64,000 nt of DNA from Singulisphaera sp. GP187 (lineage in GTDB: Bacteria > Planctomycetota > GCA-002687715): NCBI GenBank assembly GCA_945907755.1, contig CAMDTN010000005.1, positions 16,140 through 80,139 of the forward strand. The letters are read 5' to 3'. Positions 12,067-12,874 of this stretch are shown here, piece after piece (position 1 is the first letter of the stretch; every line of letters starts with the position of its first letter). Position numbers and translations under genes: made by a program. Below the pieces are notes generated by a model. That model searched no databases, was not told the DNA's origin, and saw only the letters and a list, made by a program, of their open reading frames with translations.

Positions 12067-12140
12067 CGGGGCGTGGCTCAGCCTGGTAGAGCGCTTGGTT
12101 CGGGACCAAGAGGTCGGAGGTTCAAATCCTCTCGCCCCGA
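12067..12140 (+). tRNA. tRNA-Pro (anticodon CGG)
   Basis: Manual cloverleaf: acceptor stem CGGGGCG/CGCCCCG, D-arm GCUC-AGCCUGGUA-GAGC, anticodon stem CUUGG/CCAAG with loop UUCGGGA (CGG), T-arm GGAGG-UUCAAAU-CCUCU, discriminator A. CCA is not encoded. Confidence 0.85.
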
Positions 12141-12206
12141 CTTCGTGAAAACTAAAGACCCTCGCTCACGCGGGGGTCTTTTGCTTTCCTCTCGTCGTGT
12201 CGTTGG
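12129..12206 (+). repeat. 78-bp direct repeat, copy 1 (last 12 nt of tRNA-Pro plus downstream terminator region)
   Basis: Identical 78-mer ctctcgccccgacttcgtgaaaactaaagaccctcgctcacgcgggggtcttttgctttcctctcgtcgtgtcgttgg is found again at 12312..12389. Confidence 0.85.
12156..12187 (+). terminator. Rho-independent terminator after tRNA-Pro
   Basis: Hairpin AGACCCTCGC-tcac-GCGGGGGTCT followed by TTTTGCTTT. Confidence 0.6.
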
Positions 12207-12311
12207 GTGCTACGCACCCAGCGGCCTCGGCCCCGAGGCGAGGCCTCGTCCGCAGATGACTTGCGCCGTGCGCCGCACGGCGTCAAATCTCCCCACCGCT
12301 ACCGCGGTGGG

Positions 12312-12389
12312 CTCTCGCCCCGACTTCGTGAAAACTAAAGACCCTCGCTCACGCGGGGGTCTTTTGCTTTCCTCTCGTCGTGTCGTTGG
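12312..12389 (+). repeat. 78-bp direct repeat, copy 2 (duplicated tRNA-Pro 3' end plus terminator; att-like scar)
   Basis: Exact copy of 12129..12206, including a second terminator hairpin at 12339..12370. Confidence 0.85.
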
Positions 12390-12464
12390 CATGTACGAGC
12401 GTTTGACTTGCAAGGAGGACCTCGCGCAAAGGCACTGGCTGGTCGCAACCACACAGGTGCCTGC

Positions 12465-12600
12465 ATGAAGCTCGAGTTCCTTGAGCTCCCGTCCGACGAA
12501 CGCCGCCTGCATATCGAACAGGCGGCACTAACGCGCAACGTAGACCCTGTGGTTTTGGAGAAGGACTTCTGGGTGTGCTTCCCGCGGATCGGCAGTGTGA
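12465..12600 (+). pseudogene. Fragment of an AbiEii/AbiGii-family nucleotidyltransferase toxin gene (N-terminal ~45 codons only)
   Basis: The translation MKLEFLELPSDERRLHIEQAALTRNVDPVVLEKDFWVCF matches the conserved N-terminal LEKDY/F-x-x-W motif of AbiEii toxins. Downstream the frame degenerates. Local GC is lower than in flanking sequence. Confidence 0.35.
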
Positions 12601-12874
12601 GACCAAGTCGCACTGCGTTGGAAGCGGCTGTAGACGGAGCGCCGTGCGCCTCAGAAGCGGAGTGTGTCCCAATGGGCGCGGCAGCCGGTCGTCTTCGCCC
12701 GACCGGCCGAGCGCCTATTGGGCACACGCAGCATCGCCCGCGAGCGCAATACAAGATTGGCCGTGCGGAGCCTGGGATGTGAGAGTCGACCCGTGACCGC
12801 GTAGATCCCCAAGTCAATGCGGAGCCCCCACTTGACAGGGGCACTAATCTGGATGACTGTCGTTCTCACCCGCC

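Follow-up and report, generated by a model that had tools for sequence, protein, structure and literature searches.

A copy-number-variable, probable integration-type scar and a separate AbiEii pseudogene beside tRNA-Pro(CGG) in a planctomycete contig

The DNA considered here, referred to as the window, is a 64-kb stretch of contig CAMDTN010000005.1 (listed under Singulisphaera sp. GP187), in which the 3' end of a proline transfer RNA (tRNA) gene, tRNA-Pro(CGG), is followed by an exact direct repeat of itself. Two copies of a 78-nt sequence, A1 (12129-12206) and A2 (12312-12389), enclose a 105-nt spacer, B, and the interval that we call D (12390-12874) leads from A2 to qhpG, the first gene of a qhp (amine-dehydrogenase) cluster. 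Comparison of strains shows that the 183-bp unit made up of B and one copy of A is an insertion/deletion polymorphism within one uncultured species, a variation between strains that is new and did not figure in an earlier note on this DNA. The explanation that we favor, with a probability of roughly 0.55, is a composite one. The repeats and spacer would be the left attachment site (attL), remnant, and right attachment site (attR) of an element once integrated at the tRNA, recombination between the repeats would have shifted their copy number since, and a fragment of an AbiEii gene found in D would be a separate and older remnant. Points in its favor include the exact 78-nt repeat, which takes in the end of the tRNA, and a strain allele, L008, that lacks the insert. 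The locus as a whole is ordinary, consisting of a small copy-number-variable, integration-type scar and an unrelated defense-gene pseudogene at a tRNA.

Repeat, spacer, and copy number among strains

The tRNA-Pro(CGG) gene lies on the plus strand at 12067-12141 according to ARAGORN, and the Rfam tRNA model RF00005 matches 12067-12140 with 67.5 bits, in agreement with the earlier note. The gene does not encode CCA, has its discriminator A at position 12140, and is unchanged in sequence in the sister contigs L008 and L012. Of the 78 nt of A, 12 nt (Rfam end) or 13 nt (ARAGORN end) are the last nucleotides of the tRNA, and the other 65 to 66 nt are 3' flank including an intrinsic terminator. The two plus-strand copies are direct, 100% identical, and 183 nt apart from start to start, exactly as the note had described them, and a 24-mer taken from A has exactly 2 occurrences in the 64 kb where 0.00 are expected. 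The terminator in A1 is made up of a 12-bp stem (12154-12165/12170-12181) closed by the loop UCAC, with positions 12179-12187 as its U-tract, and has a calculated fold energy of -23 kcal/mol (z = -4.0). By this predicted fold A holds a canonical intrinsic terminator, the second copy of which follows the tRNA 3'-end fragment of A2 at 12337-12370. The order along the window is the tRNA-Pro 5' part, A, B, A, and D, so that an intact tRNA gene borders one side and an exact repeat of its 3' part borders the other, both of which are marks of an integrated island.

Spacer B (12207-12311, plus strand) has a GC content of 0.733 and no open reading frame (ORF) of its own. It is predicted to fold into four to five consecutive perfect GC-rich hairpins, with an energy of -64.8 kcal/mol and a z-score of -4.96. 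No significant similarity was found between B and the upstream region, the tRNA, A, or D, and no second copy exists anywhere in the 64-kb window or in the unrelated AbiE loci that were compared. Derivation of B by divergence from the 5' part of the tRNA or from the upstream region is rejected, the local alignment score lying below the shuffle mean; a 7-nt match to the T-loop (TCAAATC), 22 nt before A2, is not significant alone. Dispersed elements of the repetitive extragenic palindromic (REP), bacterial interspersed mosaic element (BIME), or miniature inverted-repeat transposable element (MITE) type were also rejected, as B is single copy in the 64 kb and a 78-nt duplication is no short target-site duplication.

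Exact-pattern scans with the A core, the head and tail of B, and the B/A junction gave no match in genome, viral, and metagenome contigs, nor did positions 12142-12880 in a distant-mode blastn search of plasmids and phages, and Rfam returned no match for B. No source of B was found in species-representative genomes, viral contigs, JGI metagenomes, plasmids, or phages; since these collections also lack A, they apparently do not include the species that carries this locus.

Sister contigs from public metagenome assemblies were retrieved through exact-sequence lookup of window proteins, and their locus structures were compared with the window by alignment and BLAST. L008 (assembly ERZ27280223, a 97.8-kb contig with 99.3-99.5% overall identity to the window) has the structure tRNA-A-D, with a single A and no B, and across 11827-12874 it shows 0 mismatches besides the 183-bp gap. 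The structure A-B-A is found in the window's own source contig, in L007 (ERZ27280197; 99.76%), and in L010 (ERZ27280297; 99.63%). L001 (ERZ27280196), which differs from the window at 1 position in 12 kb, opens on the 35-nt tail of B and goes on as A-B-A-D, which creates a B-A-B junction. The more distant L012 (ERZ4201065; 97.3% over 5.8 kb) reads tRNA-A-B-A with a 100-N scaffold gap within A2, and its B is identical at 105/105 positions. L011, a short diverged contig with 3 mismatches and one indel in 603 nt, contains B-A with one single-nucleotide polymorphism in A. The unit is present 0 times in L008, once in the window, L007, and L010, and possibly at least twice in L001. As the single-copy allele is tRNA-A-D, plain tandem duplication of local sequence cannot yield A-B-A, and B therefore came from elsewhere. 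The comparison shows B, judged by its sequence, to be foreign to the surrounding single-copy DNA.

It could be argued that A-B-A or its variants were misassembled from metagenomic reads. Five public contigs (L001-L005, from different assemblies) do end or begin within the approximately 740 nt between 12094 and 12830, and the A2 of L012 contains the 100-N gap already mentioned. However, the final MEGAHIT k of 141 exceeds the 78 nt of A, so that each A-B-A and tRNA-A-D junction requires reads that span A, which makes both the single-copy and the one-unit alleles robust. At least four assemblies, for which two different assemblers were used, also contain A-B-A independently of one another, and the single-copy allele is internal to its 97.8-kb contig. 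An artifact is very hard to believe against this evidence, and the clustered contig breaks fit strain heterogeneity and a 78-nt repeat disrupting assembly.

The distribution of alleles, with A-B-A in the strain that diverges most and a single copy in a close relative of the window, is explained parsimoniously if A-B-A is an old feature of the species and recombination between A1 and A2 deleted the unit in L008. The presence of A-B-A in L012, at 97.3% identity, makes the structure older than the divergence of these strains. Exchange between strains may also explain the distribution of alleles. A further difference lies in D, where L011 and L012 carry an additional AT-rich 25-26 nt, AAAAAACGCCATT(T/C)ATTT(T)CTTACAT, between window positions 12412 and 12413 in the interval from A2 to the AbiEii start; the window-type strains have lost this segment.

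When L012 is compared with the window, the 171 nt made up of B and the part of A outside the tRNA contain 0 differences, compared with 15/725 (2.07%) in flanking non-coding DNA, and the probability of finding 0 in 171 nt is 0.029. Taken with the strong predicted fold of B (z = -4.96), this would suit a functional unit, in which the doubled terminators and hairpin array might insulate the tRNA from downstream genes, or in which B might be a structured tRNA-trailer RNA under selection. We consider such a function improbable, as the conservation signal is a marginal one that concerted evolution or recent exchange would produce as well. In addition, a strain without B exists (L008), B has no match in Rfam, and a strong terminator precedes it.

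Origin of the insert

Foreign DNA lying between the two copies of a duplicated target, with a tRNA 3' end as part of that target, is the expected outcome when a circle carrying a copy of A recombines in the Campbell manner. Tyrosine integrases at tRNA genes usually act in this way, with the element supplying a replacement 3' end. In the explanation that we favor, a circular element that brought along a tRNA end and a terminator of its own would have recombined Campbell-wise with the tRNA 3' end, most likely by means of a tyrosine integrase. An internal deletion would then have left the 105 nt of B, the equivalent of a gene-less cis-mobilizable element (CIME). The scar would now be inert, with its 78-bp direct repeats acting as substrates for homologous (RecA-type) recombination, which would either delete the unit, the likely source of the single-copy allele, or duplicate it by unequal exchange, and which would also keep the copies of A identical. 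The copy-number states and the perfect identity of A can be explained in this manner because 78-bp repeats permit both homologous deletion and unequal exchange. The AbiEii pseudogene would be a separate, older remnant of a defense or toxin-antitoxin module, possibly left by an earlier element at tRNA-Pro whose distal end or repeat has been lost.

The earlier note had read the whole region as the scar of a tRNA-targeted integration followed by decay. For the repeat pair this is supported by the tRNA 3'-end repeat, the foreign insert, and the insert-less L008; it does not extend to the AbiEii fragment, which lies outside, and what is enclosed is only 105 nt long and gene-less. The note had also held that relatives sharing the tRNA-qhp junction and having no repeat would refute its reading. 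L008 is formally such a relative, and secondary loss explains it equally well.

Several observations weigh against an integrated element. The ORFs of the 64 kb that were scanned yielded no integrase or transposase domain, and no full-length or related element with A or B was found in the genome, viral, and metagenome scans or in the plasmid and phage BLAST search. Only 12 to 13 of the 78 identical nt are inside the tRNA and the remainder is lineage-specific terminator. Because most of the identity lies outside the tRNA, any circle carrying A could give the same structure by plain homologous recombination. Attachment sites typically have AT-rich arm regions, whereas B is hairpin-rich and GC-rich. 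With regard to the later history, the basis for a state of at least two units is the single 35-nt overhang of the L001 contig, which may stem from few or chimeric reads, and we infer the direction of gain and loss from five or six assemblies alone.

Some of these same points would be accommodated by an origin that is not site specific and involves no mobile element. A-B-A may go back to an accident of replication or repair, either template switching that took in filler DNA or an ectopic exchange (recombination or gene conversion) with another A-bearing locus, and through recombination between its 78-bp copies it would then have behaved as a variable number tandem repeat (VNTR). The failure to find either an integrase or a related element is in keeping with such an origin, as is an identity block that is mostly lineage-specific terminator and not tRNA. 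B is made up of perfect palindromes of the type made by strand-switching, and copy number appears to vary between near-identical strains. However, A-D cannot give A-B-A by simple tandem duplication and B has no local template, while the exact tRNA 3'-end position beside a defense-gene remnant is typical of integrative elements. On balance we hold a non-site-specific origin to be unlikely, though it is the main alternative.

Alternatively, the 183-bp B+A could be a gene-less, non-autonomous "mini-CIME" that an integrase encoded elsewhere continues to insert, excise, and stack in tandem at tRNA-Pro(CGG). Such mobility would explain why B is identical at 2-3% strain divergence, why the unit is present or absent in otherwise identical backgrounds, and why a B-A-B junction is seen, since a circular form should have this junction too. 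We give ongoing mobility of this kind little credence. The locus would gain greater significance only if the unit were in fact actively mobilized in trans.

The AbiEii pseudogene and the qhp cluster

AbiE is an abortive-infection system of the type IV toxin-antitoxin class, made up of the AbiEi antitoxin and AbiEii, a DUF1814 nucleotidyltransferase (Dy et al. 2014, PMC3985639). The truncated AbiEii start that the earlier note had picked out downstream of A2 is confirmed by several searches. The ORF at 12465-12782 has no Pfam match, but its residues 1-39 match the PADLOC AbiEii model (PDLC02289) with E = 4.8e-6, and a database search recovered PF08843 proteins that are 72-85% identical across exactly these residues. 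The corresponding 12465-12581 gave tblastn E values of 1e-16 to 1e-23. This first segment of the AbiEii (PF08843/DUF1814) pseudogene (12465-12581, plus strand, codons 1-39) has 79-83% nucleotide identity to L014, L015, L006, and L016, which belong with L013 to the loci with AbiE homologues used for comparison.

A second segment is probable at 12582-12656 on the plus strand, about codons 106-131, in frame and collinear with the first. The matches here are weak: 12581-12642 aligns with nt 317-379 of the L016 AbiEii gene at 71% (blastn, E = 0.025), and residues 118-131 of the homologue P0008 align at 64% (tblastn, E = 0.21) in the frame shared with segment 1. Its placement implies a probable internal deletion of about 201 nt, which would have taken with it the KGGTSLSK and EDIDL nucleotidyltransferase motifs that are present in homologues and missing from the window fragment. 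No AbiEii resemblance is found beyond about 12656.

The start ATG is embedded in an ATGA motif, as in homologues with an overlapping AbiEi, and close homologues always have a DUF6088/AbiEi_4 gene upstream that overlaps at this motif. In the window the gap between A2 and the AbiEii ATG is 75 nt. An AbiEi remnant upstream of 12465 was considered and rejected, its sole basis being a marginal 10-residue match with E of 0.1-0.2. In L012 the AbiEii ATG is mutated to ACG. Because the AbiEi gene, the motif region, and the C-terminal part are all missing, the fragment is, to go by its sequence, a badly eroded pseudogene without antitoxin gene, catalytic motifs, or C-terminal part. A 20-nt DNA match had raised the prospect of a second AbiEii paralogue at 62652-63584, which is actually a family 2 glycosyltransferase.

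Homologues occur in contexts that are mobile or tRNA-adjacent, L016 being accompanied by an integrase, Replic_Relax, and HTH_17, and L014 by IS21. L013, an unrelated metagenome contig, carries at 8912-10222 an AbiEi/AbiEii module with a truncated 73-aa toxin, 380 nt after tRNA-Ser(TGA) and beside a PIN/Phd pair. It is a parallel case of a decayed defense or toxin-antitoxin islet next to a tRNA.

In the window, the AbiEii remnant lies outside the repeat pair, downstream of A2, and it is retained in the L008 allele that has no B, so the repeat pair and the pseudogene are better taken as separate events than as one scar. A tRNA 3'-end repeat beside a defense-gene fragment resembles a single island boundary; here the repeats enclose no genes.

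The first qhp gene, qhpG (12875-14299, plus strand; NCBIfam QhpG, E = 2.4e-53), lies outside the scar and starts 486 nt past A2, so the cluster does begin right after the region, as the earlier note had it. The cluster extends to 21662 and is directly followed by the housekeeping gene fbp (FBPase match). Apart from qhpG on the plus strand, it is encoded on the minus strand and consists of an S8 peptidase gene, a QhpB-like gene, qhpC, qhpD, qhpA, and an ABC exporter, an order that is recovered in L001 and L007. The cluster is a divergent one, with QhpG at 181.6 bits falling under the NCBIfam cut-off of 240 and QhpD and QhpA lying above theirs. A beta-subunit-like ORF at 14888-16024 (minus strand) reaches only 29 bits against TIGR03907.

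The note had further suggested that the qhp cluster was brought or remodeled by a tRNA-Pro island, in which case one element would have carried both the AbiE module and qhp and the repeat pair would be its boundary. What invites this suggestion is the short distance of 486 nt between A2 and qhpG with the AbiEii remnant in between. The side of the PMT_2 gene and the tRNA also has no close relatives in species-representative genomes, and the neighborhood may therefore vary: relatives sought there with the adjacent PMT_2 protein gave none, and the sole more distant homologue (53% identity) sits in a different neighborhood without conserved synteny.

The remaining evidence goes the other way. The repeats enclose 105 nt only, with AbiEii and qhp outside, and no further copy of the tRNA 3' end is present in the 52 kb downstream. 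This part of the tRNA was sought in the whole 64 kb, including the DNA past fbp where the note had proposed to look, with a 19-mer allowing up to 3 mismatches and a 13-mer allowing up to 1, and nothing was found beyond A1 and A2. The ORFs scanned contain no integrase, housekeeping fbp directly follows the cluster, and the order tRNA-D-qhpG is constant in strains that are 97-100% identical.

The composition of qhp is also that of the window. The cluster has a GC content of 0.629 and 0.71-0.75 at third codon positions (GC3), and a delta* of 25.0 makes its dinucleotide signature typical of windows of equal size (26.4 +/- 7.3). Nor is 12140-12870 of lower GC, as had been claimed, since 12142-12874 has a GC content of 0.628 compared with 0.622 for the window, which places it at the 60th percentile among 733-nt windows, and B reaches 0.733. 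A common island for AbiE and qhp is thus highly doubtful. We infer that neither the scar nor the AbiEii remnant is demonstrably linked to the qhp cluster, and qhp should not be annotated as island cargo on present evidence, because both the pseudogene and qhp lie outside a gene-less repeat pair.

A dispersed repeat of about 65 nt, with the core CGACC(C)GTGACCGCGTAG..CC.CCAAGT, occurs at 12766-12830 on the plus strand, 45-110 nt upstream of qhpG, and twice on the minus strand at 50374-50430 and 50481-50540. The latter two copies are upstream of a DUF47/PHO4 (Pit-like) operon, in a 1-kb intergenic region with short tandem motifs, and the repeat-rich stretch around them covers 50360-50610. The repeat may be a regulatory or REP-like element. 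Because it recurs near 50.4 kb, the sequence just upstream of qhpG is probably native intergenic DNA rather than part of an island.

Elsewhere in the window, 11702-11841 at the end of the PMT_2 gene contains a 127-bp indel between 13-nt direct repeats (CGAAGCTGGGGCT and CGAGGCTGGGGCT). These 127 bp are missing from L012, and both alleles encode a 551-aa ORF with the stop just past the repeat. The rest of the window is housekeeping in character, with 2-oxoacid dehydrogenase complexes, Pst/PhoU/PhoR genes, and porins. A 93-nt tRNA-Lys(CTT) called by ARAGORN at 28540-28632 (plus strand) is not found by the Rfam tRNA model and sits within a 706-aa HEAT-repeat ORF (26836-28956, minus strand) at a local GC of 0.73; the call is probably a false positive.

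Comparison with known systems

The locus exemplifies how an integration scar with long direct repeats can turn copy-number variable and break metagenome assemblies, and it can be set beside four kinds of known system. It shares with tRNA-integrated islands and prophages an intact tRNA at one border, an exact 3'-end repeat at the other, a foreign interior, and an allele without the insert. In contrast to them, the insert is 105 nt long and has neither integrase, cargo, nor compositional contrast, and 65 to 66 of the 78 identical nt, including the terminator, lie beyond the tRNA.

A CIME is a decayed integrative and conjugative element (ICE) or integrative and mobilizable element (IME) that keeps attL and attR and no longer has the genes for its integration and transfer (PMC5704250), a concept that is also found in Pavlovic et al. 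2004, as cited in that paper. Tandem accretion at tRNA 3' ends is described in the same 2017 paper. At the level of sequence the present locus is alike in that repeats, as putative att sites, flank a remnant without genes at the 3' end of a tRNA. The AbiE remnant, as a second decayed module, possibly stands in tandem with it, which would agree with the accretion model. Known CIMEs differ in being kilobases long and demonstrably related to a resident ICE or IME, whereas no parent element was found here in the collections searched.

The resemblance to AbiE lies in residues 1-39, with their 72-85% identity to PF08843 proteins, and in the ATGA-overlap start. Unlike a working system, the window has no AbiEi gene and no complete PF08843 domain, and what is left is a pseudogene. 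Finally, the array differs from a typical VNTR in that it closes on a partial unit (A only) and in having a long unit, which includes a terminator and part of a gene and did not originate as a duplicate of local sequence. What it shares with a VNTR is that strains no more than 0.7% apart have 0, 1, or possibly at least 2 copies of the 183-bp unit, and that the repeat copies stay identical.

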